From positions 18,401-82,400 of the forward strand of contig CAZQCO010000002.1 of assembly GCA_964592225.1 (NCBI GenBank): a stretch of DNA of 64,000 nucleotides, read 5' to 3'. Both the position numbers and the translations under genes were made by a program. Positions 29,700-47,631 of the stretch are shown piece by piece. Within the stretch, counting starts at the first letter, position 1; each line of letters begins with the position of its first letter. Source of the DNA: an uncultured Bacteroidales bacterium (GTDB lineage Bacteria; Bacteroidota; Bacteroidia; Bacteroidales; UBA10428). Under the pieces are notes generated by a model. The model made no database searches and had not been told where the DNA came from. It worked only from the letters and a program-made list of their open reading frames with translations.

Positions 29700-30749
29700 A
29701 TGAGAACAAATTACACATTTTGGAAATTTACATTAATCAGCCTGATATTAAATGTATTGATTGTAACAGGGCTAATTGCTTCTGATTATAATTTAATCCG
29801 GATTAAAAATCTTTCAGGCAGTTGGAAATTTTCTATCGGAGAACGTGAAGAATGGGTATCAGCAGCCTACAATGATACTGATTGGGAAACCATCATGGTA
29901 CCTTCACCATGGGAAAATCAAGGATTTTATGGTTATAACGGTTTTGGATTTTACCGTAAAACCTTTACAATATCCAATGAATACAAGGATAAAACTCTTT
30001 ATCTCGTTCTGGGTTATATCGACGATGTTGATGAAACCTATCTGAATGGTAAAAAAATCGGCTCTACCGGTACCTTTCCCCCCAATTACAATACAGCTTA
30101 TAATGCAAAAAGGATTTACAGGGTACCAAAGAAACTTATAAATTTTAACGGGCCTAACATTCTTGCGGTGAAAGTATATGATTCCTACCAGGCCGGAGGA
30201 ATAGTAAGTGGCAATATCGGAATTTATATAAATCCTTTCGAAATACCATTAGATGCAAGTCTGGAGGGAGAATGGAAATTTCAGACAGGTGATGATCTGG
30301 AAAGAAAATCGATTAATTATAACGACAGTAAGTGGGACAAAATTTTAGTGCCGGCCAAGTGGGAAGATCAGGGTTACAGAGACTACGACGGATATGCCTG
30401 GTATAGGAAGAATTTTTACTACCGGGGTAGCTTTAAAGAAGAGACCTTAGTATTACTTCTTGGGAAAATCGATGATGTCGATGAAGTATACCTGAACGGA
30501 GTAAAAATAGGTATGACGGGAGATTTTGTCGACCGGGAGGGTCAGCGAATATCAACCGGGCAGCATTACCAGGCCTTGAGGGGATACTTTTTCCCGGCGA
30601 ACCTGCTTAAGAAAGATCAGAAAAACACTATTGCTATTCGGGTTTACGACTCGGGAGGTGATGGAGGAATTTATGAAGGACCGGTCGGATTCGTATCTCA
30701 AACACGATATATCGAGTACTGGAGGGAACGCAAAAGAATGAAACATTAA
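29700..30749 (+). CDS. Paralogous exported tandem jelly-roll domain protein
   Basis: Same two-repeat architecture as 28602-29684. Confidence 0.75.
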   Translation: MRTNYTFWKFTLISLILNVLIVTGLIASDYNLIRIKNLSGSWKFSIGEREEWVSAAYNDTDWETIMVPSPWENQGFYGYNGFGFYRKTFTISNEYKDKTLYLVLGYIDDVDETYLNGKKIGSTGTFPPNYNTAYNAKRIYRVPKKLINFNGPNILAVKVYDSYQAGGIVSGNIGIYINPFEIPLDASLEGEWKFQTGDDLERKSINYNDSKWDKILVPAKWEDQGYRDYDGYAWYRKNFYYRGSFKEETLVLLLGKIDDVDEVYLNGVKIGMTGDFVDREGQRISTGQHYQALRGYFFPANLLKKDQKNTIAIRVYDSGGDGGIYEGPVGFVSQTRYIEYWRERKRMKH

Positions 30750-30847: not shown

Positions 30848-31426
30848 TTATGATCTTATCTTATTCAAACGTTGACCAATGATAGTAAGAAGGTTACGAT
30901 ACCAGGTATTTCCAAATCGCCTGATTAAAGCGTCTTTAACAAACTCATACAAAGGAATGCCATCCTTTTCCCCCTTTTGCCGGGCAGGTTCACAAATAGT
31001 CCATTTATCATAATTAACAGCAATAAATTGCTCATATTTTCTAATACGAATAGGATAAAGATGGCATGATACGGGTTTTCGAAAAGTAATGGCCCCATCT
31101 ATATAGGCTTTTTCGATACCACACATGGCAATACCTTTTTCAAAAACCACATAGGCACATTCCTTACCTTGAATTAAAGGTGTAACTGTTTCATTTTCAG
31201 CATCCAGAATATGTGTACCCTGTTGTTCAATAGCCTCTATACCTTCTTTTCGCAGGAAAGGTTTTATTTTATCTATTATTTCAGGCAATAAAAGCACTTC
31301 TTCGACAGAAAGTGGAGCCCCTGCATCCCCCTTCACGCAACAGGCACCTTTACATTTACTCAGATCACAGAAGAAATGCTTTTCTGCCAGATCATCGCTT
31401 AGCAGTGTATTCCCGATTTGAATCAT
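30848..31426 (-). CDS. DUF3109-family Cys-rich protein
   Basis: FFCDLSKCKGACCVKGDAGAPL, ECAY, KPVSCHLYPIR. Confidence 0.8.
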   Translation of the reverse strand: MIQIGNTLLSDDLAEKHFFCDLSKCKGACCVKGDAGAPLSVEEVLLLPEIIDKIKPFLRKEGIEAIEQQGTHILDAENETVTPLIQGKECAYVVFEKGIAMCGIEKAYIDGAITFRKPVSCHLYPIRIRKYEQFIAVNYDKWTICEPARQKGEKDGIPLYEFVKDALIRRFGNTWYRNLLTIIGQRLNKIRS

Positions 31427-31593: not shown

Positions 31594-32739
31594 CTACTGT
31601 ACAATTAGTTTTTCAGTGAATCCAAGTTCATTGGATGTAATAACCATATTGTATATTCCAACATCTAATCCGGTAATATCCAGGCTGTATGTTTGATCTT
31701 CGATCACAAATTCTGTAACTTTCAATCCGGCAGCATTAATTATACTTACCCGTGACTTATTAAAGCGATCGTCGCGAATAACCAGATTTACATAGCCTGT
31801 AGCAGGATTGGGATAGACTTCCATACCAGTCGATTCAACAAATGAAAAAAAGGCTGAAGGTGCAAAAGGAATCAATACAGCATCGAGTACATGTACAACA
31901 CCATTATCAGCTTCAATATCGGCAATAATCACTTCGGCATCGTTGATAAATATGCCGTCCATATTTATAGTCACCGCGATATCTTTTCCAAGCAAGGTTG
32001 TAGCTGTCATCCCATCCGATAGATCACCTGACATTACTGAGCCACTAAGAACATGATATAGTAGAATGTCAGCCAGGTCACCTGTCGGGTCAGCCAGCAG
32101 AGCATCGAGTACATCTGCAGGAAGAGCAGCAAAAGCAGCATCGGTTGGTGCAAATACGGTAAAGGGACCTTCACCCGACAGATCGTCAGCCAGTTCTGCA
32201 GCTATTACTGCAGCCTCAAGAGTATTATGATCTGGGCTGTTTACTATAATATCCACCACAGTTATAACCGGTGGTATCAGAACAGCATCGATAACATGTA
32301 CAACACCGTTATCAGCTATGATATCGGCAACAATCACTCCGGCACCGTTGATAAATATGCCGTCCATATTTATAGTCACCGCGATATCTTTTCCAAGCAA
32401 GGTTGTAGCTGTCATCCCATCCGATAGATCACCTGACATTACTGAGCCACTAAGAACATGATATAGTAGAATGTCAGCCAGGTCACCTGTCGGGTCAGCC
32501 AGCAGAGCATCGAGTACATCTGCAGGAAGAGCAGCAAAAGCAGCATCGGTTGGTGCAAATACGGTAAAGGGACCTTCACCCGACAGATCGTCAGCCAGTT
32601 CTGCAGCTATTACTGCAGCCTCAAGAGTATTATGATCTGGGCTGTTTACGATAATTTCGACCACAGTTTCACCCTTCACTATCAATGTTGACATAGACAG
32701 AAAAAGAGAAGTAAAAATAAAAAGTCCTAATTTCTTCAT
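31594..32739 (-). CDS. Two-fasciclin (FAS1) domain protein with T9SS type A C-terminal domain
   Basis: Two GPFTVFAPTDAAF and NGVVHV(I/L)DAVL repeats; C-terminal VYPNPA...GIYNMVI...KLIVQ. Confidence 0.9.
   Translation of the reverse strand: MKKLGLFIFTSLFLSMSTLIVKGETVVEIIVNSPDHNTLEAAVIAAELADDLSGEGPFTVFAPTDAAFAALPADVLDALLADPTGDLADILLYHVLSGSVMSGDLSDGMTATTLLGKDIAVTINMDGIFINGAGVIVADIIADNGVVHVIDAVLIPPVITVVDIIVNSPDHNTLEAAVIAAELADDLSGEGPFTVFAPTDAAFAALPADVLDALLADPTGDLADILLYHVLSGSVMSGDLSDGMTATTLLGKDIAVTINMDGIFINDAEVIIADIEADNGVVHVLDAVLIPFAPSAFFSFVESTGMEVYPNPATGYVNLVIRDDRFNKSRVSIINAAGLKVTEFVIEDQTYSLDITGLDVGIYNMVITSNELGFTEKLIVQ
31941..32649. repeat. 304-bp identical direct repeat (31941-32244 = 32346-32649), period 405 nt
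   Basis: Base-by-base comparison found no mismatch. Confidence 0.92.
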
Positions 32740-32789: not shown

Positions 32790-32819
32790 TGTTTAATATT
32801 TATATTTAATTATTAAACA
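32790..32819. promoter_or_regulatory. 30-bp palindromic operator, copy 1
   Basis: TGTTTAATA-N12-TATTAAACA, 50 nt upstream of the fasciclin ATG. Confidence 0.65.
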
Positions 32820-32919
32820 TTTATTATCATATATAAAATAATTCAAAATATTATTATCTTGTTATATAGACATTTAAGGAAATATTATATAAATAGTATA
32901 AAAATAATAAATTGAACAA

Positions 32920-32949
32920 TGTTTAATATTAATTATAATTTATTAAACA
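32920..32949. promoter_or_regulatory. 30-bp palindromic operator, copy 2
   Basis: TGTTTAATA-N12-TATTAAACA, 130 nt from copy 1. Confidence 0.65.
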
Positions 32950-33365
32950 TTTAATGATCCTTAAAGAGTTTCTTTCTTTCTCTTAAAATCAATTTTATGA
33001 TATTACTCTGGTGATTATTTTAAAAAATCTAATAAAAGAAATATCTGATTAAGTACTATTCCCTTTCGTTTAACGACTGTATTGATCTTGAAGTTTTTTG
33101 CAGAATGACAATAATATTAATATGTCTATAACCTGAAATTGGATGAAAAAATTATTTTTTAAATTTTTTAATAGATAATAACCAAATATTGGTAATGAAA
33201 GTCAATGCTTTGGTCGATTTCCTTTAATTATTATACGAGGACTGATTAATTTTAGCCTGATTTGGACACTAATGAAATTAAAAATAAGCATGAGCTGATT
33301 TTATTCAGTATAATAAACAATAGTTATCTTCACGGGTTTATTTAATAGTCCACAATTATTTTTAT

Positions 33366-35828
33366 ATGATCTCTTTACAGCAAAAAATTATCTTACTGTC
33401 TTATATCATTTTACCCGTATTCCTGCAGGGACAGTCAGCTCCTCTATTGAATGAAGGAACAATTACAGGAAAGGTTATCGATAAACAGGCAAATTTACCC
33501 CTGGAATATGCAACCATTAGTCTTTTTACATCAGATTCGGTGCTTGTTGATGGTACTATCACCTCATCCGATGGGACCTTCTTCCTGAAGGTAAGTCCTG
33601 GAAATTATTTCGCTGAAGTACAATTTATTTCCTATGAAAAACTGGTTATAAATAATGTTTCTATAACCGCACAGAACAGAAATATTGATTTAGGTACAAT
33701 AGCACTTGAACTGGAGTCCACATCACTCAATGAGGTCACTGTTATTGGTGAGCGAAGTGAAATGGTTATTAATCTCGATAAAAAAATATTCAATGTCGGG
33801 AAGGATCTCAGCAATACAGGAAAAACTGCCCTTGATATACTAGACAATATACCTTCTGTAGCTGTCGATATGGAGGGTAATATTACACTCAGAGGCAGTG
33901 AAAATATCCAGATCCTGATTGACGGAAAACCTTCAGGCATGGTAAATTCCAGCAATACCAATGCGCTGCAAAGTTTACAGGGTTCGATGATTGAAAGAGT
34001 GGAAATAATTACCAATCCCAGCGCCCGTTACGAGGCCGAAGGTATGGCGGGTATCATTAATATCGTATTACGAAAGGACGCTAATAAAGGAGTAAATGGC
34101 ACATTCGAAGTCACTGCCGGTTATCCGCAGCAGTATTCTTTAGGCGTCAATGTCAATTTTCGAAAGGAAAAGATCAATTATTTTCTGAATTATAACATCC
34201 GGTATAATGAGCGGCCGGGAATGGGAAAATCGTACCAGGAATTTACACTGTCCGACACAAGTTACATCACCCGTTTGGAAAGGGAACGCTTACGAACCGG
34301 CCTCTCAAACCGTATCCGTGGAGGCGCCGATTATTACATTAATTCAAAAAATACAATTACTACCTCCTTTTTGTTTGGTATTGATGATCAGTTGAATACT
34401 ACCCGGCTCTCGTACAATGATTTTACATTTTCCAACCCACCTGTTCCTATTGCCAGTTCCTATAGAATTGACAAAGAAGAAGAAGATGAAAAAGACATTG
34501 AGATTTCAATGAACTATGAAAAGAAATTTGAAAAGGAAGATCACAAGCTTACATTTTTGACCCAATTCATGGAAAACAGTGAAACGGAAAAATCCTCGAT
34601 TGAAGAAGAAATTATTCCCTCCAATGAGGATGTAGGGAGTACAATTATTCAGCGATCCTATAATAATGAGAGTGAAAAGAATTTTTTATTGCAGGCCGAT
34701 TATATTTATCCATTTGGGAACGATGGCAAATTTGAAGCCGGTTACCGGAGCGAATTCAGGAATATCGCAAATCCTTATTATGTTGAAGAGCAAGACGACA
34801 ATAACAATTGGATGAGACTTGAAGAATTTTCAAATAATTTCAAGTATATCGAAAACATTCATGCGCTCTACCTTCAGGGCGGAAATAATTTCGGCAAAAT
34901 AGGGCTTCAGTTTGGATTAAGAACCGAACTCTCCGATGTGCGAACCTTCCTTCATGAAACGAACGAAAAAAACGAAAGACTATACCTTGACTTTTTCCCT
35001 ACGTTCCATAGTTCATTTCAATTCAGTAAGGTTCATTCGATGCAGTTAAGTTATAGCCGGAGAATTCAGCGCCCACGTTTCTGGTTTCTGAATCCTTTTC
35101 ACAGTTATAGTGATTCCCGAAATATCCGTAGCGGAAATCCCAACCTTAATCCTGAATACACACATTCTCTCGAAGCCGGATACCTGGCAAATCTGACTGT
35201 ATTTAATTTTTATTCGGGAGTTTACTACAGATATTCAACCGATGTCATGGAGCGTGTAAATTTTGTTGACGATTCTACAGGTATTACATTAACGATGCCG
35301 CTTAACCTGTCAGAGAGACAATCCTTCGGTTTCGAGAGTAATATTACATTACGTGTACAGAAATGGTGGACTCTCTCGGCCAATTTCGACTTCTTCCGTT
35401 CCATTACAGATGGACATTTCGAAGAAGAGAACCTTCACAGCGACGATTATTCATGGAACACACGTTTAAATTCACGGATACGTCTGCCAAAAAACTTCGA
35501 TATCCAGACCATATTCTTTTATCGCGCCCCCCAGGAAACAACTCAGGGTCTTAGAAAAGCCTTCTATATGTTAAACCTGGGCATAAGCAAAGATTTGTTA
35601 AAAGGAAACGGCACCTTAACCTTCAATATACATGATGTACTGAACAGTCGCAAATTCAGGTTTATTATCGATCAACCCGATCTGTATTCTGAAAATGAGT
35701 TTCGCTGGTCGAAACCTAATTATACTCTAACTTTCATCTATCGTCTCAATCAGAACAATCGAATGACAAGGAATGGTCGTAATAATGGAAGTAACAACGA
35801 TTTTGGAGGCGATGAGATGGTATTCTAG
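33366..35828 (+). CDS. TonB-dependent receptor (outer-membrane beta-barrel family)
   Basis: Carboxypeptidase-regulatory-like N-terminus, plug motif IERVEIITNPSARYEAEGMAGIINIVL, beta-barrel. Confidence 0.88.
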   Translation: MISLQQKIILLSYIILPVFLQGQSAPLLNEGTITGKVIDKQANLPLEYATISLFTSDSVLVDGTITSSDGTFFLKVSPGNYFAEVQFISYEKLVINNVSITAQNRNIDLGTIALELESTSLNEVTVIGERSEMVINLDKKIFNVGKDLSNTGKTALDILDNIPSVAVDMEGNITLRGSENIQILIDGKPSGMVNSSNTNALQSLQGSMIERVEIITNPSARYEAEGMAGIINIVLRKDANKGVNGTFEVTAGYPQQYSLGVNVNFRKEKINYFLNYNIRYNERPGMGKSYQEFTLSDTSYITRLERERLRTGLSNRIRGGADYYINSKNTITTSFLFGIDDQLNTTRLSYNDFTFSNPPVPIASSYRIDKEEEDEKDIEISMNYEKKFEKEDHKLTFLTQFMENSETEKSSIEEEIIPSNEDVGSTIIQRSYNNESEKNFLLQADYIYPFGNDGKFEAGYRSEFRNIANPYYVEEQDDNNNWMRLEEFSNNFKYIENIHALYLQGGNNFGKIGLQFGLRTELSDVRTFLHETNEKNERLYLDFFPTFHSSFQFSKVHSMQLSYSRRIQRPRFWFLNPFHSYSDSRNIRSGNPNLNPEYTHSLEAGYLANLTVFNFYSGVYYRYSTDVMERVNFVDDSTGITLTMPLNLSERQSFGFESNITLRVQKWWTLSANFDFFRSITDGHFEEENLHSDDYSWNTRLNSRIRLPKNFDIQTIFFYRAPQETTQGLRKAFYMLNLGISKDLLKGNGTLTFNIHDVLNSRKFRFIIDQPDLYSENEFRWSKPNYTLTFIYRLNQNNRMTRNGRNNGSNNDFGGDEMVF

Positions 35829-36021
35829 AATTCTCAATTCAACCAGTACTCTTTTATAAAAACAATAAAACCCAGGTGAAGTTGGATAACCTAAAACACC
35901 GATAGATGTTATGAAGTTAAAAAATATACATTCCCACTCTACCGGGGCATTAATTATTTTCTGAAGAAAAGTGAATTAAGAACAGTCTCAACTTATAAAA
36001 CTCAGGACAAACAGTAAACAA

Positions 36022-36663
36022 TTATTTTTTTGATGGTTTAAGCGTCCCACTTGTTGTAGAGGTTGTTCTGGGTTTTTTTACCGGTTTGCTGCTTGCTGGT
36101 TTTACTACCTTAAGATCAGCGTTGATTCTCTTGGCTTCTTCCTTCAATTCTTCAAGCTTTTCCAGGGCGACAACAAAATCATTCTCGTTAAGCATAGTTT
36201 TAATTTCTTCAAGGGCAGCATCAACCGCATAGGCATCTTTCCTTAAAACCAGTTGCTGAGAACTAATGCTTCCCGTTTTTGGGATCATGTTTTTGCTGTC
36301 ATTATTAATAGTCCCGATTTCTGCCATTAACTCACTCGCCTCGCCTGATAATTCAGCTTTTTTCTCATCATTTTTTTCTTCCAGTTCTGTTGCATCTTCC
36401 ACAACACCTGCAAGTTTGTCTTTAGCCTCTCCAAAACTTTTAAACATTTTCGAACCTTGCTTTTCTACCAGTTCTAAAACTTCATCTAATTTTTCCTGTA
36501 AATCCTTAAAATCATCCGCTAATATTTTGTCTGCTCCGTGGGCAACAAGAGAGTCGAGAGCAGCTTTGGCTGTATCAACTTCTGCCTGCGGCATTTTTCC
36601 ACAACCAGTAATCAAGGCAAAAACAAGTATTGCCAAACCTAAAAAGTTCCTGTTTTTTTTCAT
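36022..36663 (-). CDS. Helical lipoprotein, DUF4398-like
   Basis: Lipobox LITGC, MPQAEVDTAKAAL start, coiled-coil body, basic low-complexity tail. Confidence 0.6.
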   Translation of the reverse strand: MKKNRNFLGLAILVFALITGCGKMPQAEVDTAKAALDSLVAHGADKILADDFKDLQEKLDEVLELVEKQGSKMFKSFGEAKDKLAGVVEDATELEEKNDEKKAELSGEASELMAEIGTINNDSKNMIPKTGSISSQQLVLRKDAYAVDAALEEIKTMLNENDFVVALEKLEELKEEAKRINADLKVVKPASSKPVKKPRTTSTTSGTLKPSKK

Positions 36664-36893
36664 AATTAGATAGTTTGATTTTTAATTACGAACTATTGAA
36701 GTTTATACTCTATTACAATTCGTTAATTGAAAGATATTATACAAAATCTGATAATTTCCTGATTTTTTTATCCGTTAATGTTCTATACTGAAAGATACAA
36801 CAATTATTATTACTGTAAATATTTTATTTTCCATAATGCTTATTCAATAATTGATGGAGTAAATTCCAATTTCAAAAGACTTCAACTATTTTA

Positions 36894-37910
36894 TTGAAGA
36901 ATTTTTTTACGGAATGTTACTTTAACGTAAATTTCAGTCATAATAAGAAAAAGTTCATGACCGTACATATCCTTCTGATAATTTTAGGATTTGTTTTGCT
37001 AATTAAGGGCGCCGACTGGCTGGTAACAGGTTCTGTTTCGCTGGCGAAACAGTATAATATATCGGAATTGGCCATTGGTTTAACCGTTGTTGCTTTTGGA
37101 ACTTCAGCTCCGGAACTCCTGGTAAACGTTCTTTCATCGATAAAAGGATATAATGATGTTGCAGTGGGTAATGTTGTAGGCAGTAATATCTTTAATCTGC
37201 TACTGATCCTAGGTATTTCCGGTATGATCTATCCTCTTACAGTACAAACCAAAACTGTCTGGAAAGAAATACCCATATCATTGCTGGCAACTGCCTTACT
37301 CATTTTATTAGCGAATAACTGGTTAACTCCTAGTTCTGCTGCTCTGTTCAGTAGAATGGACGGACTGATCTTCATTGGTATATTTCTGCTCTTCCTTCTC
37401 TATATGGCTTTCTCAATGAAAACAGAAAAAACCGATACAGATTCGGAATATCAAACATATAAGATTTCATGGACCATACTCTATATTGCAATTGGTTTGA
37501 TTACACTTATTGTGGGTAGTAAATTAGTTGTAGATAAAGCCGTAAAAATAGCTCAGCTACTTCATGTTAGTGAAAAATTTATCGGGCTCACTATAATTTC
37601 AGCCGGAACTTCACTTCCTGAACTTTTTACTTCCGTTGTGGCTGCCATCCGCAGAAGAAGTGATATAGCTGTAGGAAACGTAATAGGTTCCAATATTTTT
37701 AATATTTTCCTTATCCTTGGAGTCAGTGCTATAATAAAACCCATCAAATACAATTTACAGTTTAATCTCGATATCCTGGTTCTGATTGGCGCAACAATCT
37801 TACTTTTTATTGCCATGTTTAGCGGTAAGAAGTACAAACTGGATAGATGGGAGGCAGCCCTTTTTACAGCAGGTTACCTGGTTTATATCATCTATTTAAT
37901 AAGACATTAA
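36894..37910 (+). CDS. Calcium/sodium antiporter, YrbG family (likely start ATG 36957)
   Basis: Two alpha repeats GTSAPE and GTSLPE with GNVVGSNIFN / GNVIGSNIFN. Confidence 0.9.
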   Translation: MKNFFTECYFNVNFSHNKKKFMTVHILLIILGFVLLIKGADWLVTGSVSLAKQYNISELAIGLTVVAFGTSAPELLVNVLSSIKGYNDVAVGNVVGSNIFNLLLILGISGMIYPLTVQTKTVWKEIPISLLATALLILLANNWLTPSSAALFSRMDGLIFIGIFLLFLLYMAFSMKTEKTDTDSEYQTYKISWTILYIAIGLITLIVGSKLVVDKAVKIAQLLHVSEKFIGLTIISAGTSLPELFTSVVAAIRRRSDIAVGNVIGSNIFNIFLILGVSAIIKPIKYNLQFNLDILVLIGATILLFIAMFSGKKYKLDRWEAALFTAGYLVYIIYLIRH

Positions 37911-37935
37911 TGAATATCCAACTACTGATATCCAA

Positions 37936-39963
37936 ATGATAAGTTCTATCTATACTGGCATATTGAATCTCCCTCTGAAGGAACCTGTATTTGTTTTCGC
38001 TGTCCTTATACTTTCAATTCTTCTGGCCCCTATTGTTTTTAAAATTATCAGAATTCCCGATATAGCTTCCTATCTGCTGGCAGGCATCATTATTGGCCCC
38101 TATGGTTTTCACCTCTTAGAGCGCGATACCAGCATTGTGTTACTTGGAACTGTCGGATTACTATACCTTATGTTTGTTGCCGGATTAGAACTAAACCTCA
38201 GGGATTTTAATAAAAGCCGGAATACAAGTATACTTTTTGGATTATTGACTTTTATTTTCCCCTTTTTAATAGGCTATATTATTTGCCATTTTATTCTGCA
38301 ATTAAATATTGTGGCAACTATACTCGTATCTATTATGTTTTCAACACACACTCTCGTGGCCTATCCAATTGCAAGGAAACTGGGAATTACAAAAGATGGT
38401 TCAGTAATGGCGGCTGTCGGAGGTACTATTATTACTGATACTCTTGTATTGCTTGTATTGTCAATAATTACCGGAATTTCTGTTAAAAATAATATACCCT
38501 GGGAAATAATCAGGCTAGTGGGATTATTTACAATTTATCTGCTGGTAATATTTTTCAGTTTTCCACGCCTGGCTACATGGTTTTTCAGCAATGTAAAAAG
38601 AGACAGACCCGTTCACTTTATTTTTCTTCTTGGATTGGTTTTTATTTCAGCAAGTATCGCAAAATTAGTTGGAGTAGAACCTATTATCGGAGCATTTGTT
38701 GCCGGACTTGCCTTAAATAAAGTTATCCCAAAAAACTCCATGCTCCTGCAGCATGTCGATTTTGTCGGGAATATTCTTTTTATACCTCTCTTTCTGATTA
38801 GTATTGGCATGCTCATCGATCTTCGTATTCTTTTTCAGGGAATTCACCTGTGGTATGTAGCAGCTTTATTGGTTATTTCAGCCCTTCTTGGTAAATGGTT
38901 AGCCGCTTTTACTACGCAGAAAATCTCAGGTTATTCTAAGGCACAGCGTAATGTACTTTTTGGTCTGACCTGCTCCCACGCTGCAGCCACAATAGCCGTT
39001 ATTCTTATCGGGTATGAACAGAACCTCATCGATAATGTCATTTTTAATGCTGTTATAGTTATCATTCTGGTAACAAGTCTGACTGCCTCACTGGTTACGG
39101 AATGGGGAGGAAAAAAACTTGCAAAAGAAAGAATCACATTTCAGAGCCTGGAACGAAAACTAACACGGAGAATCCTCGTCTCTATAGCAAATCCGTCAAC
39201 TATGAGTGAATTGGTTAGCCTCGCCATCCAAATGAATACCCACAATACTGAAGAACCGGTTTATGCCGTAAGTGTAGTGAAAGATGATACGGAAGCAAGA
39301 AGTAATTTGGAATATATAAGAGAATGTCTGGAAATGAATCTCGCTCCCTATAATGTGCTATCAGAAAAAATAAAAATTATTACCCGTATCGATCTGAATA
39401 TAACTAATGGCATTCTGCGGGCAGCAAAAGAACTTTCTGCCACAGATATTGTAATTGGATGGGCCGAAAAAACCAATCGCGTACAAAAAATTATGGGCAA
39501 CATTTTCGATCATCTGCTAAAAAGCACCATCACACTATATGCCTGCTATATAAACGATACGGTTCAGAATTTTGGGCAAATCAATATTTTTGCTCCAAGA
39601 AATACTGAAATTGAACCTTCATTTTCAGGATGCATGAATAATATTACAGGATTACCAGCAAAAAAAAATATACCCATTTCCATCTATTCCGACTCCGAAT
39701 TATCTGTTCAGAGTATTACCAAATCTTTTCAGGAAAAGAAATATAAAAATCTGAATCATAACATACTTCATGATGTCTCTGAGATGAAAGCTATTTTATC
39801 ATCACAGCATTCAAATACCCTGACTATCTTTTTTGTAGGTAGAAAACATCATATCTCCTACGACCCAACATATGAGAAAAAAGTCAAAAATATTCCATTC
39901 CAGTTTCGTGATGGAAATTTTATTTTAATAGTCCCCGGATTGGAAGAAATCGTTAAAACTTAA
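37936..39963 (+). CDS. Cation:proton antiporter (CPA2) with USP-like C-terminal domain
   Basis: 12-13 TM segments, GLLYLMFVAGLE, IIGAFVAGLAL, RILVSIANP. Confidence 0.85.
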   Translation: MISSIYTGILNLPLKEPVFVFAVLILSILLAPIVFKIIRIPDIASYLLAGIIIGPYGFHLLERDTSIVLLGTVGLLYLMFVAGLELNLRDFNKSRNTSILFGLLTFIFPFLIGYIICHFILQLNIVATILVSIMFSTHTLVAYPIARKLGITKDGSVMAAVGGTIITDTLVLLVLSIITGISVKNNIPWEIIRLVGLFTIYLLVIFFSFPRLATWFFSNVKRDRPVHFIFLLGLVFISASIAKLVGVEPIIGAFVAGLALNKVIPKNSMLLQHVDFVGNILFIPLFLISIGMLIDLRILFQGIHLWYVAALLVISALLGKWLAAFTTQKISGYSKAQRNVLFGLTCSHAAATIAVILIGYEQNLIDNVIFNAVIVIILVTSLTASLVTEWGGKKLAKERITFQSLERKLTRRILVSIANPSTMSELVSLAIQMNTHNTEEPVYAVSVVKDDTEARSNLEYIRECLEMNLAPYNVLSEKIKIITRIDLNITNGILRAAKELSATDIVIGWAEKTNRVQKIMGNIFDHLLKSTITLYACYINDTVQNFGQINIFAPRNTEIEPSFSGCMNNITGLPAKKNIPISIYSDSELSVQSITKSFQEKKYKNLNHNILHDVSEMKAILSSQHSNTLTIFFVGRKHHISYDPTYEKKVKNIPFQFRDGNFILIVPGLEEIVKT

Positions 39964-40094
39964 TTTGCTCCCGTTAAAAAATCAAGTAAATATTTCAGGA
40001 GGATCATTAAGATAATCAGTCCTATTGCCATTAAAAAGACCGGCCAAGTCCCATTGCTGCATGGTGTTGTTGACTTAATATGTGCTGCTTTCAT
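39960..40094 (-). CDS. Putative 44-aa single-TM small protein (absent from the ORF track)
   Basis: MKAAHIKSTTPCSNGTWPVFLMAIGLIILMILLKYLLDFLTGAN; stop overlaps the convergent antiporter stop (TTAA). Confidence 0.35.
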   Translation of the reverse strand: MKAAHIKSTTPCSNGTWPVFLMAIGLIILMILLKYLLDFLTGAN

Positions 40095-40225
40095 ACCATT
40101 ATTGGGTTTTTAAATTGAAATATCCAGCAATTTTATAGGAATTAATAGGTACAGGTTTCCCTTTACTCAATAACTGACATCGACAGAATCATTAAATTAT
40201 GCAGGTAAATTTTCCAACTGAAGCA

Positions 40226-40645
40226 TTACTTATCTTGTAACTGTTTTACTATGTCTTCCAATACATGTGTCCAATAATGCTTCATTTCATCCCTTTGTTT
40301 TGCATCAAGCAATTTTTCCTGATGAATACTAAGTGTTGTTTTTCCTGCATTGGGAATGGTCCTGATCTGAAGAATGGAATCATGGGCCCAGTCTTTTCGT
40401 CGCCAGGACAACCGTATGTGTGAGAATATTTTAAAAACCCTGATCATTCCCTGTGTGCCTTCCTCCGTAAGATATTCGATACCTGTTTCCCATTTATCAA
40501 ACGCCCATGTTCCCAGCCAGACAGACATGCCTTTTTTTGATAAAAGAAATTTCCATACATCTTCCACCGGAAGATTGACAGTACGACTAACGCCAACCTG
40601 GTAACCGTAATCTTTTGTAAATCCGATGAAATCACCTTTCGACAT
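40226..40645 (-). CDS. SRPBCC/AHSA1-like domain protein
   Basis: VSRTVNLPVEDVWKFL..W, IRLSW, TTLSIHQE, final helix with W. Confidence 0.75.
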   Translation of the reverse strand: MSKGDFIGFTKDYGYQVGVSRTVNLPVEDVWKFLLSKKGMSVWLGTWAFDKWETGIEYLTEEGTQGMIRVFKIFSHIRLSWRRKDWAHDSILQIRTIPNAGKTTLSIHQEKLLDAKQRDEMKHYWTHVLEDIVKQLQDK

Positions 40646-40728
40646 ATTACAAATATACTCTTTAGTTGATGTTAATCAGAGTATCAGAAAATAATTATGG
40701 AACTCACAGTTTATGCTTAAAGGTTTTA

Positions 40729-42264
40729 CTATTTCATCCGGATTGGAATAGTAAAGCAGAACCTGCTGCCTTCATCGGGATTGCTTTCTGCCCATATTCT
40801 GCCACCATTCAACTCAACAAAATTCTTGCACAGGATCAACCCTAATCCGCTTCCTTTCTCGGAGCTTGATCCTATTGATGTAGTATCGACTTCGATTTTA
40901 AATAATTTTCCTATATCCTCCCGGGAAAGACCGATTCCTGTATCAATCACTTTTAAAATTATGGAATCATCATGTTTTTCAGATTCTATTGTGATTTTAC
41001 CGCTTTCGGTAAATTTTATCGCATTCCCTAATAGATTCCGGAGTACTGTACCTATCATATTTTTATCGGCAAATACCATCAGGTCCTGACCTGAGTAATT
41101 AACTGATATAGATTTTTGACGGGCGGCTTCACAGTATAACTCTATATTTTCAGTAATATTATCTTTCATATTAAAATATTCGGGAGTAACTTTTACCCGA
41201 CCGGTTTGTAATTTTGACCACTCAAGAAGGTTCTGCAACAGATTATAAGTCCGCCTTGCAGAGAATTCGATTGCAAAGATATTCTCTTCGATTAAAGAAA
41301 AATCTTTTTTACTAAAAGCTTCGTTTAATAGTTCGAATAGGTTGAGCAACGATACAAAGGGACTTCTCAGATCATGAGCAATTATTGAGAAAAACATATC
41401 TTTCGACCAGTTGATTCGTTTCAATTCCTCGGAATATTGCAATATTTCTTTTTCCGATCTCCTTCGGGCGCGGTTTTCAAGTAGCAATTGTGTGAATACG
41501 TATAGAATAATGAGTAACCCGATACTAAAACCTACTATTAGTGTAACGATCATAGATCGGATGTCCCTCTCAATTTTAGATTTAAAGGATTTCTGGATTA
41601 ATTCCAGTTTGGTTGAATGACCCTCTGCCAGATTTCGAATCACTTTTAAGAGAGGATATACCTTGCTAACAACTAACTGAGTGGCTGCCTTTTTATCATT
41701 ATGCTTATAAAAGACTAAAATCTCATCCATCAATTGAGTCTCTTGATTTATAAGCATCTCAAGCGAATCACCTTGTGCTTTCGACATAAAAAGCCGGTAG
41801 TCTGTTTTTCTAAAATTCTCTAAACTAACTCGTAGTTCTTCTTTGAAATAAAAATAATCAACAAGATAATCATCTTTGGAAGTCAACATAAAATAGCTAT
41901 GTGATGTAATTAACGCACGCAGGTTTATCCTTAACTCATCAAGAGATGTAAATACTTCAGCAACTTCAATAATCTTTCTATCTTCCTTGAAAATATCATG
42001 AGTATACCAGGTAACTGATATACTTGTTACCACAAAAATTATTATGGATATAATAAACAGGGAAAAAACCTTTTTTCTGCTCATTGCGCTAAAAATCTGC
42101 CTGAAATTACAAATTACTTTACAGATTAAATAAGCCACGGCATAATATTGAATATTCAACCAATAATTTTTATACAGAATGCTTTGTCTTCCGATATACT
42201 TCTTAGTCGCAAGAATCAAATATCCTAGAACTTCATTATGTGTAAAGTGATTTTGAGTGTGCAT
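40729..42264 (-). CDS. Sensor histidine kinase with CHASE3-like sensor (likely start ATG 42084)
   Basis: Two TM segments, FFSIIAHDLRSPF H-box, DTGIG and [11 protein letters not shown]-boxes; no adjacent regulator. Confidence 0.85.
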   Translation of the reverse strand: MHTQNHFTHNEVLGYLILATKKYIGRQSILYKNYWLNIQYYAVAYLICKVICNFRQIFSAMSRKKVFSLFIISIIIFVVTSISVTWYTHDIFKEDRKIIEVAEVFTSLDELRINLRALITSHSYFMLTSKDDYLVDYFYFKEELRVSLENFRKTDYRLFMSKAQGDSLEMLINQETQLMDEILVFYKHNDKKAATQLVVSKVYPLLKVIRNLAEGHSTKLELIQKSFKSKIERDIRSMIVTLIVGFSIGLLIILYVFTQLLLENRARRRSEKEILQYSEELKRINWSKDMFFSIIAHDLRSPFVSLLNLFELLNEAFSKKDFSLIEENIFAIEFSARRTYNLLQNLLEWSKLQTGRVKVTPEYFNMKDNITENIELYCEAARQKSISVNYSGQDLMVFADKNMIGTVLRNLLGNAIKFTESGKITIESEKHDDSIILKVIDTGIGLSREDIGKLFKIEVDTTSIGSSSEKGSGLGLILCKNFVELNGGRIWAESNPDEGSRFCFTIPIRMK

Positions 42265-42269
42265 CCAAA

Positions 42270-42317
42270 AAAAACAGAGTGACGCTCATTCATCGATTCC
42301 GCTCTCACTCTGTTTTT
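42270..42317 (-). terminator. Terminator after the displaced tRNA 3' half
   Basis: AAAAACAGAGTGA...TCACTCTGTTTTT 13-bp perfect stem, T run on the minus strand. Confidence 0.7.
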
Positions 42318-42319
42318 AA

Positions 42320-42396
42320 GTAGTACCACCTGGAATCCCTGCCTGTCCTGCTGAAGCAGTCAGTCAGGCAGGGAACCAGGGACACTCGGATTTTCA
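42320..42396 (-). repeat. Duplicated 3' half of tRNA-Phe with 35-nt insertion
   Basis: Without 42338-42372 it matches 42698-42739 at 40 of 42 nt. Confidence 0.92.
42338..42372. repeat. Nested palindromic (REP-like) insertion
   Basis: CCTGCCTG-TC-CTGCTGAAGCAG-TCAGT-CAGGCAGG; outer 8-bp inverted repeat, inner hairpin. Confidence 0.8.
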
Positions 42397-42771
<375 letters not shown>

Positions 42772-42788
42772 TTTATTTATTGGCGCTG

Positions 42789-42818
42789 CAAATCTAATAA
42801 AAATTGTTGTTTAACAAA
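42789..42818 (-). promoter_or_regulatory. sigmaA promoter of tRNA-Phe
   Basis: Minus strand TTTG-N18-TAGATTTG. Confidence 0.65.
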
Positions 42819-42969
42819 AAAGGATGCATTATTAATTCTTACTCTATCTGACATTCCATATTTTATAATGGTAACGGTTCAATAATGTCAATTTCCCTAC
42901 ACATAATAAATTTAAAATTAGATGGTTTAAGTGGGAAATAAATGATCATTTTTTACTTTTGCAGGACTT

Positions 42970-44214
42970 TTGAGAGGAGATGCGAAGATGGAATTAAATA
43001 CCTTTACGTTAGATAACGGAATCCGACTTATTCACCAGCCTACTAATTCACCTGTTACTCATTGTGGTATTATTATTAATACAGGTTCGCGCGATGAACT
43101 GGATCATCAGCACGGGATGGCTCATTTCATTGAACATCTTATTTTCAAGGGTACAAAAAAACGTAAAGCACACCATATATTAAGTCGGATGGAAGATGTT
43201 GGGGGAGAGATGAATGCATTCACAACCAAGGAGGAAACCTGCATCCAGATATCCTTCTTCAATAATTTTTATGACAGGGCATTTGAAATTCTGACTGACA
43301 TTTTAATCCGTTCGACATTTCCTGAGAAGGAAATACATAAAGAAAAAGATGTAATTATAGATGAAATTAATTCCTATAAGGACTCTCCCGTCGAACAGCT
43401 CTATGACGATTTTGAAGAACTGATATTTCAAAACAATCCGATCGCCAGAAATATTTTGGGAACTCAGGCAGCACTTAATACTTATTCCCGCCAGGACATT
43501 ATTGAGTTTTTTGCATCCAATTATTATACCACCGAAATGGTTGTGTCCAGTGCCGGAAATATTTCCTACAAACGTATACTGGGATATTTTAAGAAATACT
43601 TCTCGGAATTTGAAAAAAAAGAGCCTTTCTCTGCGAGAACAGTTTATGATGCTTCATCGTATGTAGCAAAAACAATAAAACAAGAACATAATACTTATCA
43701 GGCACATTGTATAACCGGAAACCTTGCTTACAGTAATCGCGAAGAAAAACGCCTCGTACTTCATTTGTTGAATAATCTGTTAGGTGGTCCGAGCATGAAC
43801 TCCCGTCTTAATATGGCACTGAGGGAGAATAATGGCTTAGCATACAATGTAGAATCGAATTATAATACATACAGCGATATAGGAATAGTAAATATATATT
43901 TTGGTACTGATAAAGAAGATATTAATAAATGTTTGGAGCTTATACAAAAAGAACTTAAAAGAATCAGAGAAGTCAGGCTTGGAACTATACAGCTTACCAG
44001 AGCCAAGCGACAGCTTATTGGACAGCTTGCAATGGCGGCTGATAATAACGAGCATCAGATGATTTCTAACGGAAGAAGTATGTTGTTGTTCAACAGAGTT
44101 GATACCCTGAAGGAACTGAGCGATAAAATAAACAATATCTCAGCGGGCGAATTACTGGACGTTTCAAATGAGATATTCGATCCAAAAATTCTAACCCAAT
44201 TAATTTTTTATTAA
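42970..44214 (+). CDS. M16 (pitrilysin-family) zinc peptidase (likely start ATG 42988)
   Basis: HFIEH inverted zinc motif, NAFTTKEET, SRLNMALRE. Confidence 0.9.
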   Translation: MRGDAKMELNTFTLDNGIRLIHQPTNSPVTHCGIIINTGSRDELDHQHGMAHFIEHLIFKGTKKRKAHHILSRMEDVGGEMNAFTTKEETCIQISFFNNFYDRAFEILTDILIRSTFPEKEIHKEKDVIIDEINSYKDSPVEQLYDDFEELIFQNNPIARNILGTQAALNTYSRQDIIEFFASNYYTTEMVVSSAGNISYKRILGYFKKYFSEFEKKEPFSARTVYDASSYVAKTIKQEHNTYQAHCITGNLAYSNREEKRLVLHLLNNLLGGPSMNSRLNMALRENNGLAYNVESNYNTYSDIGIVNIYFGTDKEDINKCLELIQKELKRIREVRLGTIQLTRAKRQLIGQLAMAADNNEHQMISNGRSMLLFNRVDTLKELSDKINNISAGELLDVSNEIFDPKILTQLIFY

Positions 44215-44224
44215 TACCTCAAAA

Positions 44225-44866
44225 ATGACCGACAAATCGGAACAAATCACCAACTATATCACCAGTCATTCGACATTGGAAGATCCTGTCCTGGCGAAAC
44301 TCAATAGGGAAACACATCTTAAAATGATCTATCCGCGAATGATTTCCGGTCCGCTGCAGGGAAAACTTCTTCAATTTATCAGCCAAATGATCCAACCGAA
44401 TTATATTCTTGAAATTGGAACATTTACAGGATATTCAGCCATTTGTCTTGCAAAAGGACTGGCAGAAAATGGGAAATTAATAACCATTGATATAAATGAT
44501 GAATTAACCCTCTTTTCTCAGAAATACTTCAAAGAGGCAGGGTTATCCTCAAAAATCGAACTGCTGACAGGAAATGCCATCGATATTATCCCAACACTTC
44601 CCTATACTTTCGACCTGATATTTATCGACGCTGATAAAAAAGAATATGTAAGCTATTACAACACCGGTTTTGACAAGCTTGCTCAGGGGGGATTTGTTAT
44701 TGTAGACAATGCACTCTGGGGTAATAAAGTTGTTAATGAATCAAAGAACTCCGATCAGGAAACTCAAGCCATTAAGAAACTAAACGACTTAATTTTTAAC
44801 GATCCGAGAGTTGAAAATATTATTCTCCCAATTAGGGACGGAATTAATTTGATTCGAAAAATCTAG
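44225..44866 (+). CDS. SAM-dependent O-methyltransferase (class I)
   Basis: ILEIGTFTGYS, FDLIFIDADK, IVDNALW, RDG. Confidence 0.9.
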   Translation: MTDKSEQITNYITSHSTLEDPVLAKLNRETHLKMIYPRMISGPLQGKLLQFISQMIQPNYILEIGTFTGYSAICLAKGLAENGKLITIDINDELTLFSQKYFKEAGLSSKIELLTGNAIDIIPTLPYTFDLIFIDADKKEYVSYYNTGFDKLAQGGFVIVDNALWGNKVVNESKNSDQETQAIKKLNDLIFNDPRVENIILPIRDGINLIRKI

Positions 44867-45007
44867 ATTGCAAACAAACAAAATGTCATTTGCCTTGTTA
44901 ATTATTACAACCCTTAGGATCATATGTATACTACTTATTGATCCTTAAATTAATTAGTTATATTTAATCCTTCAACTAATCGCTACTAACTACAAAACAG
45001 GAAATTA

Positions 45008-45898
45008 ATGAGTCATTATTCAATACGTGATCTTGAAAGGCTAACCGGAATAAAGGCACATACAATTCGAATCTGGGAAAAGCGTTATGGACTCATTGAA
45101 CCTGAGCGGACCAATACAAATATCAGAGCTTATTGTGATGCCGAGTTAAAAAAACTATTAAATATTTCCATCCTTAACAGGAATGGAGTTAAAATATCCA
45201 AATTAGTCAATCTGTCTCCAGAAGAGATAGCTCAGAATATCAGTAAACTTAACGATAGTCCTGCTGACACCGAAAGTTATCTCGAAAACCTGGTATTGGC
45301 AATGATTGAATTCGATGAACAAAAATTTGAAAAAATACTCTCCCATGCCATAATACAAATGGGATTTGAAGATACAATTATACATATAGTAAGTCCTTTC
45401 TTTATCCGTGTAGGAATTATGTGGCAAACGGGTACAATTAATCCTGCACAGGAGCATTTCGTCTCTAATCTCATCCGCCAAAAATTGTTTGTTGCCATCG
45501 ATAGTCAAATGTCTGGGGACTCAACAAATATGAAAACCTTTTTATTGTACCTTCCCGAAGGTGAATTGCATGAACTTAATTTGATCTTTTCAAATTATAT
45601 GATCCGAAAAAGAGGGCACAGAGTTATTTATCTCGGACCCAATGTGCCTTTTAATGATTTGGTTGAGATTGATCGGTTCAAACCTTCGGATTACCTGATG
45701 ACTTCAATTGTAACAGCAATTTCTCAGATTGATTTAAAAAAATACTTGCAGAAACTCTCTCTATCTTTCCCGGAAAAAACTATCTATGTTTCAGGAGAAC
45801 AACTTTCACTTTATACTGATAAATTTCCTGAGAATATCAAATATCTGGCGTCACCTCAAAATTTGGCCGCCGAACTAAATTATATAGCCTCTTCATAA
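45008..45898 (+). CDS. MerR-family regulator with cobalamin-binding domains (CarH/LitR type)
   Basis: MerR HTH (TIRIWEKRYG), W-x9-EH (WQTGTINPAQEH), B12-binding region ELHELN and YLGPNVP. Confidence 0.88.
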   Translation: MSHYSIRDLERLTGIKAHTIRIWEKRYGLIEPERTNTNIRAYCDAELKKLLNISILNRNGVKISKLVNLSPEEIAQNISKLNDSPADTESYLENLVLAMIEFDEQKFEKILSHAIIQMGFEDTIIHIVSPFFIRVGIMWQTGTINPAQEHFVSNLIRQKLFVAIDSQMSGDSTNMKTFLLYLPEGELHELNLIFSNYMIRKRGHRVIYLGPNVPFNDLVEIDRFKPSDYLMTSIVTAISQIDLKKYLQKLSLSFPEKTIYVSGEQLSLYTDKFPENIKYLASPQNLAAELNYIASS

Positions 45899-46096
45899 AA
45901 TGTCGACTAATATATTCTCATTTATGTATTCAATCTAATTGAAGCTCCGTGCTGCAAACTTTCGGGAATGCGGTCCCAAGGATTCAATTTACAAACTTCG
46001 TTTTTTATATCCTTTCTTATTCAACTCCTGCTCCCATCATCTGTATAAAGATTTACAATGAGAATAAAGGATGTTATTGTCTCATTTTCAATATTT

Positions 46097-46126
46097 TGTT
46101 TACTTTTATAATTTTATTGTTAAACA
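46097..46126. promoter_or_regulatory. 30-bp palindromic operator, copy 3
   Basis: TGTTTAC-N16-TTAAACA. Confidence 0.6.
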
Positions 46127-46276
46127 GTATGAAAGACGTTATTCATTATTTATAACTTATTTAGAATCATTCGGAATAATCGTCTATTAGGCCTAATAAT
46201 TGCCCATTATTTCATTTTTTCTTATTTAAAAAAGACTTAAAAAGAGCTGTCTGGACTAGGTTTCAGGTTTGGTTAA

Positions 46277-46306
46277 TGTTTAACTTTTAATTATTTTTGT
46301 TAAACA
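46277..46306. promoter_or_regulatory. 30-bp palindromic operator, copy 4
   Basis: TGTTTAAC-N14-GTTAAACA, 34 nt before the ECF sigma ATG. Confidence 0.65.
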
Positions 46307-46340: not shown

Positions 46341-46850
46341 ATGACAGCAGTTGAATTTAACTACCAGTTAACTAATCTTTCAAGCAATCTTGAAAGATTT
46401 GCTTTGAGTCTTACATCGAATATGGAAGATGCAAAGGATCTTCTTCAGGAAACATTTGTAAAAGCTATCACATACAGAGATAAATTTGAAGAGAATACCA
46501 ATCTGAAGGCCTGGACATTTACAATCATGAAAAATACTTTTATAAATAATTACAGGCGTAATGTAAAAGCCAATACAACGTTCGATCATACTGATGATTT
46601 GTATTACCTGAATATAAATACCGAATCGAAATCGACTACACCTGATAGCGAATATTCCGTAAAAGAAATTCAAAAGAGTATTGCGGAATTGACGGATGAA
46701 TTTCGACTTCCTTTTGTTATGCATACACAGGGATATAAGTATAAAGAAATTGCGGATATACTTGACCTGAAAATTGGTACCGTAAAAAGCCGTATTTTTT
46801 TCACACGGAAAAAGCTTATGGAAAAGCTTAAAGGTTATGATATGAATTAA
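46341..46850 (+). CDS. ECF sigma-70 factor
   Basis: DAKDLLQETFVKA, LKAWTFTIMKNTFIN, GYKYKEIADIL..IGTVKSRIF. Confidence 0.92.
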   Translation: MTAVEFNYQLTNLSSNLERFALSLTSNMEDAKDLLQETFVKAITYRDKFEENTNLKAWTFTIMKNTFINNYRRNVKANTTFDHTDDLYYLNINTESKSTTPDSEYSVKEIQKSIAELTDEFRLPFVMHTQGYKYKEIADILDLKIGTVKSRIFFTRKKLMEKLKGYDMN

Positions 46851-46917: not shown

Positions 46918-47631
46918 GTGATACCACGCGATACTATATTAAAAACAAGAATAAACGGTAACTCTGAAAAAAATAACAAATTTCTCAGAATAATCGACGA
47001 TGATAATAATGCGAACAATAAAGAAACACCATTACGTGTCGATGCATTCGATCTTGATGACCAGGCAAAAATCGATAAAATAGCTATGCATTTTCAGAAA
47101 ATAGTTGAGACACTCGGCCTCGATCTGAATGATGATAGCATAAAAGGAACTCCGCAACGTGTAGCAAAAATGTTTGTCAGCGAAATATTTAGCGGGCTTA
47201 ATCCTGAAAATAAACCCAGGGTAACTCTTTTCGAGAATAAATTCCGGTATAATCAAATGCTGGTAGAAAAGAATATTAAAGTTCATTCATACTGTGAACA
47301 TCATTTTGTGCCAATAATTGGTAAAGCACATGTTGCATACATTTCAGACGGATATGTGATAGGACTATCCAAAATAAACCGGATCGTCGATTACTATGCC
47401 AAACGGCCACAAATTCAGGAGCGTCTTACAGAACAAATAGCCCAGGAGCTAAAAAATGTAATGAAAACTGAAGATGTTGCAGTGCTCATCGAGGCCAATC
47501 ATATGTGCGTAACCATGCGGGGAATAAAAGATCAGGACAGCTCTACTACAACAAGCAGCTATTACGGAAAATTCCTTGAACGTGAATACAGGAATGAATT
47601 TCTTACATACGTTTACAACAAAAAACATTAA
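46918..47631 (+). CDS. folE: GTP cyclohydrolase I
   Basis: [41 protein letters not shown]. Confidence 0.95.

Follow-up and report, generated by a model that had tools for sequence, protein, structure and literature searches.

CarH serves as a model of photoreception based on B12 and is in wide use as a part for green-light optogenetics. The class I CarH operators of Thermus, Bacillus and the Myxococcales consist of 3–5 tandem 11-bp direct repeats of the form nnnnTnnACAn; palindromes had been proposed earlier for CarA and were later revised to direct repeats (PMC9304148). In the LitR-LitS system of Streptomyces, the B12 photoreceptor controls an adjacent extracytoplasmic function (ECF) sigma factor that drives the carotenoid (crt) genes (PMC11519972). 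The class II LitR proteins of Pseudomonas (PplR1, PmlR2) recognize the box T(G/A)TACA-N12-TGTA(C/T)A, and their regulon includes phrB, folE and a cryptochrome gene, with folE being light-induced (PMC9758184). No description of a CarH operator or regulon from the Bacteroidota was found in the searched literature. Here, we analyzed a 30-bp inverted repeat, TGTTTAM-N16-TTAAACA (M being A or C), in a 64-kb stretch of DNA from an uncultured Bacteroidales bacterium (UBA10428; assembly GCA_964592225.1, contig CAZQCO010000002.1), which is referred to as the window. The repeat lies upstream of a fasciclin gene and, 13 kb away, upstream of an ECF sigma factor gene that directly follows a carH/litR gene. 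We propose, with a probability of roughly 0.8, that this dyad is the operator of an adenosylcobalamin (AdoCbl)-dependent CarH repressor, which would occlude sigma-A promoters in the dark and start a CarH-to-ECF cascade in the light.

The 30-bp dyad and its association with carH

A pattern scan of the window returned exactly four matches to TGTTTAM-N16-TTAAACA, whereas 0.00 were expected (0 in 100 dinucleotide-preserving shuffles of the window), so that the spaced motif does not occur at background frequency. Two boxes precede the fasciclin gene. The proximal box, TGTTTAATATTTATATTTAATTATTAAACA, occupies positions 32790..32819, 51 bp upstream of the fasciclin ATG, and the distal box, TGTTTAATATTAATTATAATTTATTAAACA, occupies 32920..32949, 181 bp upstream of the same ATG, and is separated by 130 bp from the proximal copy and by 416 bp from a divergent TonB-like outer membrane protein (OMP) gene. 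The other two boxes are located downstream of carH (stop at 45898) and upstream of the ECF ATG (46341). The distal box of this spacer is TGTTTACTTTTATAATTTTATTGTTAAACA (46097..46126, 215 bp upstream of the ECF ATG), and the ECF-proximal box is TGTTTAACTTTTAATTATTTTTGTTAAACA (46277..46306), which ends 35 bp before the ATG. With a position weight matrix (PWM) derived from the boxes of related loci the four copies scored between 24.5 and 32.4 (32.4, 24.5, 26.5 and 29.1 in the order given). No other window position reached a PWM score of 12, which means that extra weak boxes were not above background, and no further box was found anywhere in the window with two or fewer mismatches allowed. The open reading frame (ORF) listing and Pfam annotation placed all four boxes in intergenic DNA. 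The scans thus bear out an earlier note on this DNA, which had reported four copies with constant spacing at these positions, paired before the fasciclin and ECF genes at distances of 130 and 180 bp, and no other copy.

The conservation of the box was investigated in 80 Bacteroidota carH loci, which were obtained from a scan for CarH relatives with one genome per species and included Bacteroidales metagenome-assembled genomes, Lentimicrobium, Cyclobacteriaceae, Adhaeribacter, Pontibacter, Chitinophaga and Carboxylicivirga; the genes in these loci were simple ORF calls. Candidate cultured carriers among them are Carboxylicivirga linearis FB218 (L060), C. taeanensis (L070), Adhaeribacter terreus (L037) and Pontibacter (L041, L049). 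The core TGTTTA-N18-TAAACA occurred 59 times, in 47 of the 80 loci. Other half-site spacings between N12 and N21 gave 0–1 matches each, except for N+1, which gave 10. Alternative spacings were therefore rejected, since apart from N17 these classes were nearly empty and the spacing is specific. In the 133 kb around carH and the ECF genes 102 PWM sites were present, vs. 27 in the remaining 1151 kb, which corresponds to a ∼33-fold higher density, and most of these 27 sites lie before a fasciclin, phytoene desaturase (crtI) or folE gene of the same cluster. The matrix was dyad-symmetric out to TTnTGTTTAAyTTT...AAArTTAAACAnAA, with a complementary Y/R pair at positions 8 and 23 and an AT-rich center that holds little information. 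Boxes were also present upstream of carH itself (L010, L015, L039, L059, L063, L097 and L171), where they may represent autoregulation-type sites. The scan of relatives with the PWM, as the earlier note had suggested, showed that the box travels with carH across the Bacteroidota. The link that had been drawn between the fasciclin locus and the CarH-ECF locus is real and conserved across orders. Co-variation of half-site variants (TGTTCAA/TTGAACA) with CarH was considered and rejected, since boxes of the variant and of the consensus type were present together in the same locus, which points to affinity tuning.

An unbiased exact-pattern scan of metagenome contigs yielded 120 loci, the flanking genes of which were clustered and annotated with Pfam. 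Of the 127 sites in these contigs, 110 were intergenic. Separately, the unrelated metagenome contigs L109, L110, L111, L168 and L179 were observed to share one identical whole 30-mer, TGTTTAA-GATGCGAACGAGCAT(T/C)-TTAAACA. Its spacer GATGCGAACGAGCAT is GC-rich and internally palindromic, and the 30-mer resembles a conserved hairpin or repeat element in its own right, with only the outer arms in common with the operator.

The carH/litR gene of the window (45008..45898, + strand) encodes the proposed repressor, a protein of 296 aa with a MerR-type DNA-binding domain and a predicted AdoCbl-binding domain. Pfam detected MerR_1 (E 5.5e-12) and MerR (E 3.3e-09) as well as B12-binding_2, and PF02310 was undetected. 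The protein has ∼8000 relatives at E < 1e-10, mostly from uncultured Bacteroidales, and in some cases their source names are 'light-induced transcriptional regulator' or CarH. The motif Wx9EH, which is given as defining for class I CarH/LitR (PMC8156234), is present as W139-x9-E149-H150, is invariant in 19 homologues and aligns to AWHRGEIGVAEEH of the Thermus thermophilus protein (TtCarH). The E/DxHxxG loop reads E186-L-H188-E-L-N191, and its Glu and His are likewise invariant in the 19 homologues. The sequence alignment with TtCarH spans both domains (E 5.6e-20), with an interdomain linker that is ∼11 residues longer in the window protein. An AlphaFold model (predicted local distance difference test score 80) had TtCarH 5c8d/5c8e as best PDB matches (E 8.5e-15), and the B12 domain of the model compared to that of TtCarH with a template modeling score of 0.78–0.80 and a root-mean-square deviation of 3.2 Å. 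The earlier assignment of the B12-type MerR protein at 45008 to the CarH type is upheld by its domains, the Wx9EH motif, E186 and H188, the alignment and the fold match, and we regard the protein as a true, if divergent, member of class I CarH/LitR.

Promoter overlap, proposed mechanism and competing explanations

The ECF sigma factor gene (46341..46850, + strand), the predicted primary target, lies directly after carH, and an ECF gene holds this +1 position in 57 of the 80 loci. The window ECF sigma factor scored under the cut-off of every named NCBIfam family. In 62 of 65 loci, 0–67 bp separate the end of the nearest box from the ECF ATG. In Bacteroides and Flavobacterium, the -7 element of sigma-A promoters is TAnnTTTG; promoter elements were identified here as matches to the consensus. 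A perfect TAnnTTTG overlaps the box in 45 of the 65 loci. Its start falls in one of three registers relative to the box, -5 in 9 loci and +5 and +16 in 18 loci each. The window shows the +16 register, and its putative -7 box TATTTTTG occupies 46292-46299, within the spacer of the ECF-proximal box. A putative -33 element, TTTG (46268..46271, + strand), is located 20 bp upstream of the -7 box, at a position that alignment A2 shows as conserved. Overlap of a symmetric site with the core promoter in three different registers is the picture expected of a repressor operator and not of an ECF promoter.

In the proposed mechanism, oligomers of B12-loaded CarH would occupy the boxes in the dark. At the ECF promoter, the overlap of the box with the sigma-A -7 element (TAnnTTTG) would block RNA polymerase, and the fasciclin boxes would have the same mode of action. 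In the light, the cofactor would be photolysed and the CarH oligomer would disassemble, upon which transcription would begin at the ECF sigma-folE operon and at the fasciclin gene. The ECF sigma factor, which has no anti-sigma gene beside it, would presumably extend the response to more promoters, in a cascade of the LitR-to-LitS type. The inverted half-sites, 18 bp apart, would suit a two-fold symmetric pair of DNA-binding domains, not the head-to-tail array of Thermus. The sequence comparisons show the sites, their conservation, their position on promoters, the gene content of the regulon and the CarH signatures of the protein. From these we infer binding of the boxes by CarH, its action as a repressor under the control of light and B12, and cooperation between paired sites; the box-marked genes of this Bacteroidales bacterium would most likely be kept off in the dark through CarH.

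Forty-seven box pairs lay within 400 bp of each other, and their spacing clustered at 61–64 bp (12 pairs) and at 40–46 bp (9 pairs), with some pairs merely 34–35 bp apart. Upstream of the ECF gene the spacing is 180 bp in the window, 179 bp in locus L201, the CarH of which is 76% identical to that of the window, and 181 bp in L001. These spacings would fit cooperative binding or looping by a tetramer, although they are no proof of it. The 130-bp spacing of the fasciclin pair amounts to a non-integral number of helical turns.

Several points weigh against CarH as the protein that reads the dyad. The characterized class I CarH proteins all bind tandem direct repeats and not dyads (PMC9304148), and the half-site centers of the box are separated by ∼24 bp or 2.3 helical turns, again a non-integral number. 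Residue 191 of the window protein, the Gly position of the E/DxHxxG loop, is Asn, and close homologues have G, S, N or T there. The best NCBIfam match was the CarH equivalog NF052513, with 113.7 bits vs. a cut-off of 400, and by this score the window CarH is a distant subfamily and no equivalog of the curated CarH set of NCBI. Finally, a second repeat element in the carH-ECF spacer could be the true CarH site. This element is a tandem 11-bp repeat, TTATTTATAAC/TTATTTAGAA (46146..46166, + strand), with a third copy at 46222-46231. The TTATTTAGAA element recurs in other carH-ECF spacers (L001-L003, L005, L006, L013, L015, L016, L023, L031, L032, L034, L047, L048 and L071), always on the ECF-coding strand and flanked by the distal and the proximal palindrome. 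In many cases there are two tandem 11-bp repeats and a third copy ∼60 bp further. In L048 the element is arranged as a separate inverted repeat, and in L070 and L076 it is also present upstream of fasciclin. Its reverse complement contains TAAATA, one base off the half-site TAAACA. The elements could be pseudo-repeats that assist CarH binding, or another factor could bind them. A reading of TTATTTAGAA/GGAAC as an ECF-type promoter was rejected, as no conserved -10 element was present at a fixed distance.

The explanation that survives best beside CarH binding to the dyad is that the palindrome is the site of another, unlinked factor for light or photo-oxidative stress, and that CarH binds elsewhere, for example at the tandem TTATTTAGAA repeats. 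The 11-bp tandem periodicity of these repeats is typical of CarH operators, their TAAATA differs from TAAACA by the single base mentioned above, and no class I CarH is known to have a dyad operator. However, TTATTTAGAA is restricted to carH-ECF spacers of the Bacteroidales type and is absent from Cytophagales and Chitinophagales loci with a near-identical CarH DNA-binding domain, and it is also absent upstream of the window fasciclin gene. The palindrome, in contrast, tracks carH in all lineages, also upstream of carH itself, and it shows no consistent linkage to any other DNA-binding regulator. We therefore consider an unlinked factor unlikely.

ECF sigma factors are often autoregulated, with promoter elements 16–17 bp apart, and in almost every locus the ECF gene comes directly after the motif, which could suggest that it is an autoregulated promoter (-35/-10) read by the ECF sigma factor itself. 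This is very improbable, as the motif, unlike promoters, has perfect dyad symmetry and is conserved symmetrically, and its three registers over the sigma-A -7 box leave no fixed promoter geometry. In many loci, moreover, the motif covers ∼+1 to +30 and ends 0–3 bp before the ATG, and it is present before carH where no ECF gene adjoins.

That the boxes are RNA or DNA hairpins (terminator, attenuator or mobile repeat) and not a protein operator is barely credible, for although three of the four window boxes fold as RNA (-7.3 to -7.7 kcal/mol, z-scores -3 to -3.9) and the metagenome subfamily with the single whole sequence around GATGCGAACGAGCAT is repeat-like, the arms do not vary between orders and show no compensatory changes, in contrast to the free spacer, which is the signature of a protein site, box 46097 folds no better than its shuffles, no T-tract or intrinsic terminators were found, and the +16 register puts the left arm upstream of the likely transcription start. 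A riboswitch or other RNA element in the two box spacers was likewise rejected, since Rfam had no match in the window except one tRNA, no intrinsic terminator was present and the hairpin energies are a trivial effect of the palindromes.

Genes preceded by the box

The fasciclin gene (31594..32739, - strand), a predicted target, encodes two FAS1 domains followed by a type IX secretion system (T9SS) C-terminal sorting domain (Pfam Fasciclin, E 3.2e-72; Por_Secre_tail, E 2.9e-11; NCBIfam T9SS type A sorting domain). The same box was present upstream of homologous fasciclin genes in 17 other loci. In nine genome loci (Carboxylicivirga, Saccharicrinis, Mariniphaga and Prolixibacteraceae) the fasciclin gene is located directly upstream of carH, and in seven of these nine the box precedes it. 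Downstream of the window fasciclin gene lies a DUF3109 gene (30848..31426, - strand; Pfam DUF3109, E 1.8e-75), and its co-regulation with fasciclin is possible; in metagenome locus L096 a DUF3109 homologue has two boxes directly upstream. The relative L001 has the DUF3109 gene next to the OMP gene and lacks both the fasciclin gene and the boxes at this junction, and boxes 32790 and 32920 of the window therefore belong to fasciclin. The same junction makes regulation of the divergent TonB-like OMP gene by the distal fasciclin box improbable, though less so because two TonB-like receptor genes flank metagenome boxes in L092 and L099.

A precedent for the fasciclin gene comes from algae, where AstaP is a secreted, carotenoid-binding fasciclin that is induced by photo-oxidative stress and is the only fasciclin with a known small-molecule function (PMC10147662, PMC7477208); a cyanobacterial homologue showed no carotenoid binding (PMC10147662). 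Given this precedent and the conservation of fasciclin in the regulon, the predicted T9SS-exported fasciclin is, by analogy, an attractive candidate for a carotenoprotein of bacteria or for a surface protein with some other photoprotective role.

The folE gene (GTP cyclohydrolase I; 46918..47631, + strand) starts 67 bp after the ECF gene and is probably co-transcribed with it. This position fits known light regulons; in Pseudomonas, folE is light-induced via class II LitR (PMC9758184). The box also stands directly before folE or before operons of 6-pyruvoyl-tetrahydropterin synthase (PTPS) and folE in L105, L126, L143, L189 and L033. The PTPS-folE operons have paired boxes (L126, 4797/4831; L143, 768/803; L105, 3067/3615), and the pairs that are 34–35 bp apart almost abut and are far tighter than the 130–180 bp of the window. 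Owing to these boxes, pterin synthesis is apparently a core part of the regulon.

Among the metagenome loci, the genes flanking the boxes encode ECF sigma factors (13 loci), fasciclins (10), CrtI (4), PTPS followed by FolE (3) and SRPBCC proteins (3). Single cases were DUF3109 (with two boxes), folE, a DNA photolyase gene divergent from a flavin monooxygenase gene, and a peroxiredoxin (AhpC) gene divergent from a base-excision glycosylase gene. The metagenome scan also placed the box upstream of carH. In L166, a rhodopsin gene (Bac_rhodopsin, E 1.8e-45; 940-1683, - strand) is located 91 bp from an exact box at 1777, which may suggest that CarH controls proteorhodopsin expression in some Bacteroidota. 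In 16–18 genome loci carH-ECF is followed by crtI-crtB-idi-lycopene cyclase, and a photolyase gene is near carH in 14. The position of the crt genes after the ECF gene is compatible with an ECF sigma factor that drives light-induced promoters, but is no proof of it. The box thus precedes predicted photolyase, carotenoid and fasciclin genes, as the earlier note had anticipated, and rhodopsin and folE/PTPS genes in addition; judged by their annotation, the box-bearing genes would form a set for light and photo-oxidative stress.

A bolder version of the CarH proposal can be formulated, although we consider it doubtful. The CarH of the Bacteroidota would be the first AdoCbl photoreceptor to read a dyad operator, with a head-to-tail dimer on each palindrome and a tetramer bridging the pairs. 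The fasciclin, as one of its conserved direct targets, would be a light-induced, cell-surface counterpart of AstaP that binds carotenoids or is photoprotective, and the switch would remodel the cell surface and the pterin supply (folE), not pigment synthesis. No crt genes were present in the window.

Two further observations concern other parts of the window. Positions 28602-29684 and 29700-30749 encode adjacent paralogues of ∼350 aa each, in which all detected domains were galactose-binding-like (Glyco_hydro_2_N, BetaGal_ABD2) and a catalytic glycosidase domain was absent. The segment 40226-42771 is variable when compared with 3833-7479 of L201 and lies between the upstream genes and a GIY-YIG gene with a tRNA (42699-42771, - strand). 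It contains a histidine kinase and an AHSA1/SRPBCC protein in the window, and TIR_2, HTH_26 and Pfam-less 509-aa proteins in L201 and L202. The segment is a variable tRNA-adjacent island that is possibly defense-related in the relatives.

Comparison with known light-responsive systems

The window protein and the boxes share several features with class I CarH/LitR (Thermus thermophilus, Bacillus megaterium and Myxococcales). These are the MerR winged helix, the four-helix bundle with Wx9EH, a predicted fold that matches 5c8d/5c8e and, by prediction, a Rossmann-type B12 domain with a putative axial His, the TnnACA hexamer, a predicted operator over the core promoter, and carotenoid and photolyase genes as putative targets. 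The half-site TAAACA fits the published TnnACA, but the box is an inverted TAAACA pair with the half-sites 18 bp apart and not a series of tandem 11-bp direct repeats, so that the operator layout differs from the class I arrays (PMC9304148), as the earlier note had claimed. Unlike in the described class I systems, the sites are 30-bp dyads, often in pairs 34–190 bp apart, that cover a Bacteroidota -33/-7 promoter, and the window protein has the longer linker (by ∼11 residues relative to TtCarH) and Asn in place of Gly. If CarH is the binder, the same DNA-binding domain and TnnACA hexamer would be usable in another geometry, which makes the system a test of the flexibility of the DNA-binding domains in the tetramer.

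With LitR-LitS of Streptomyces, the locus has in common that the ECF gene adjoins carH/litR under its putative operator, that there is no anti-sigma gene, that the regulator would act on the sigma promoter, and that a two-tier light cascade would end at carotenoid genes (PMC11519972). The genes are arranged in tandem here, carH followed by ECF, whereas they are divergent in Streptomyces, and many crt genes of the Bacteroidota follow the ECF gene in the same cluster, some with their own boxes. Streptomyces LitR has been proposed to activate litS in the light, while the geometry of the box argues for simple repression.

The resemblance to AstaP is an analogy only: AstaP is a secreted FAS1 protein induced by light stress, and the window fasciclin is a predicted secreted FAS1 protein under the putative operator of a light sensor. 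The box points to fasciclin, DUF3109 and SRPBCC genes as new candidates for photoprotection genes. More generally, the box could serve as a sequence tag for the prediction of light regulons in Bacteroidota, including the abundant marine and freshwater flavobacteria, in which boxes precede rhodopsin, photolyase, carotenoid and pterin genes. A complete predicted light and B12 switch is carried by an uncultured Bacteroidales lineage, an unexpected host.

For the dyad itself, the nearest match is found in class II LitR. Both have bipartite boxes with TGT...ACA ends, and in the class II system two sites per promoter likewise lie over the -35 region and the leader (PMC9758184). The class II proteins differ in that they have no Rossmann B12 domain and that light is sensed via a partner light-oxygen-voltage (LOV) protein, and their hexamers are separated by N12 instead of the N18 observed here. 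With respect to architecture, the class II LitR box TGTACA-N12-TGTACA is the closest precedent for the dyad.

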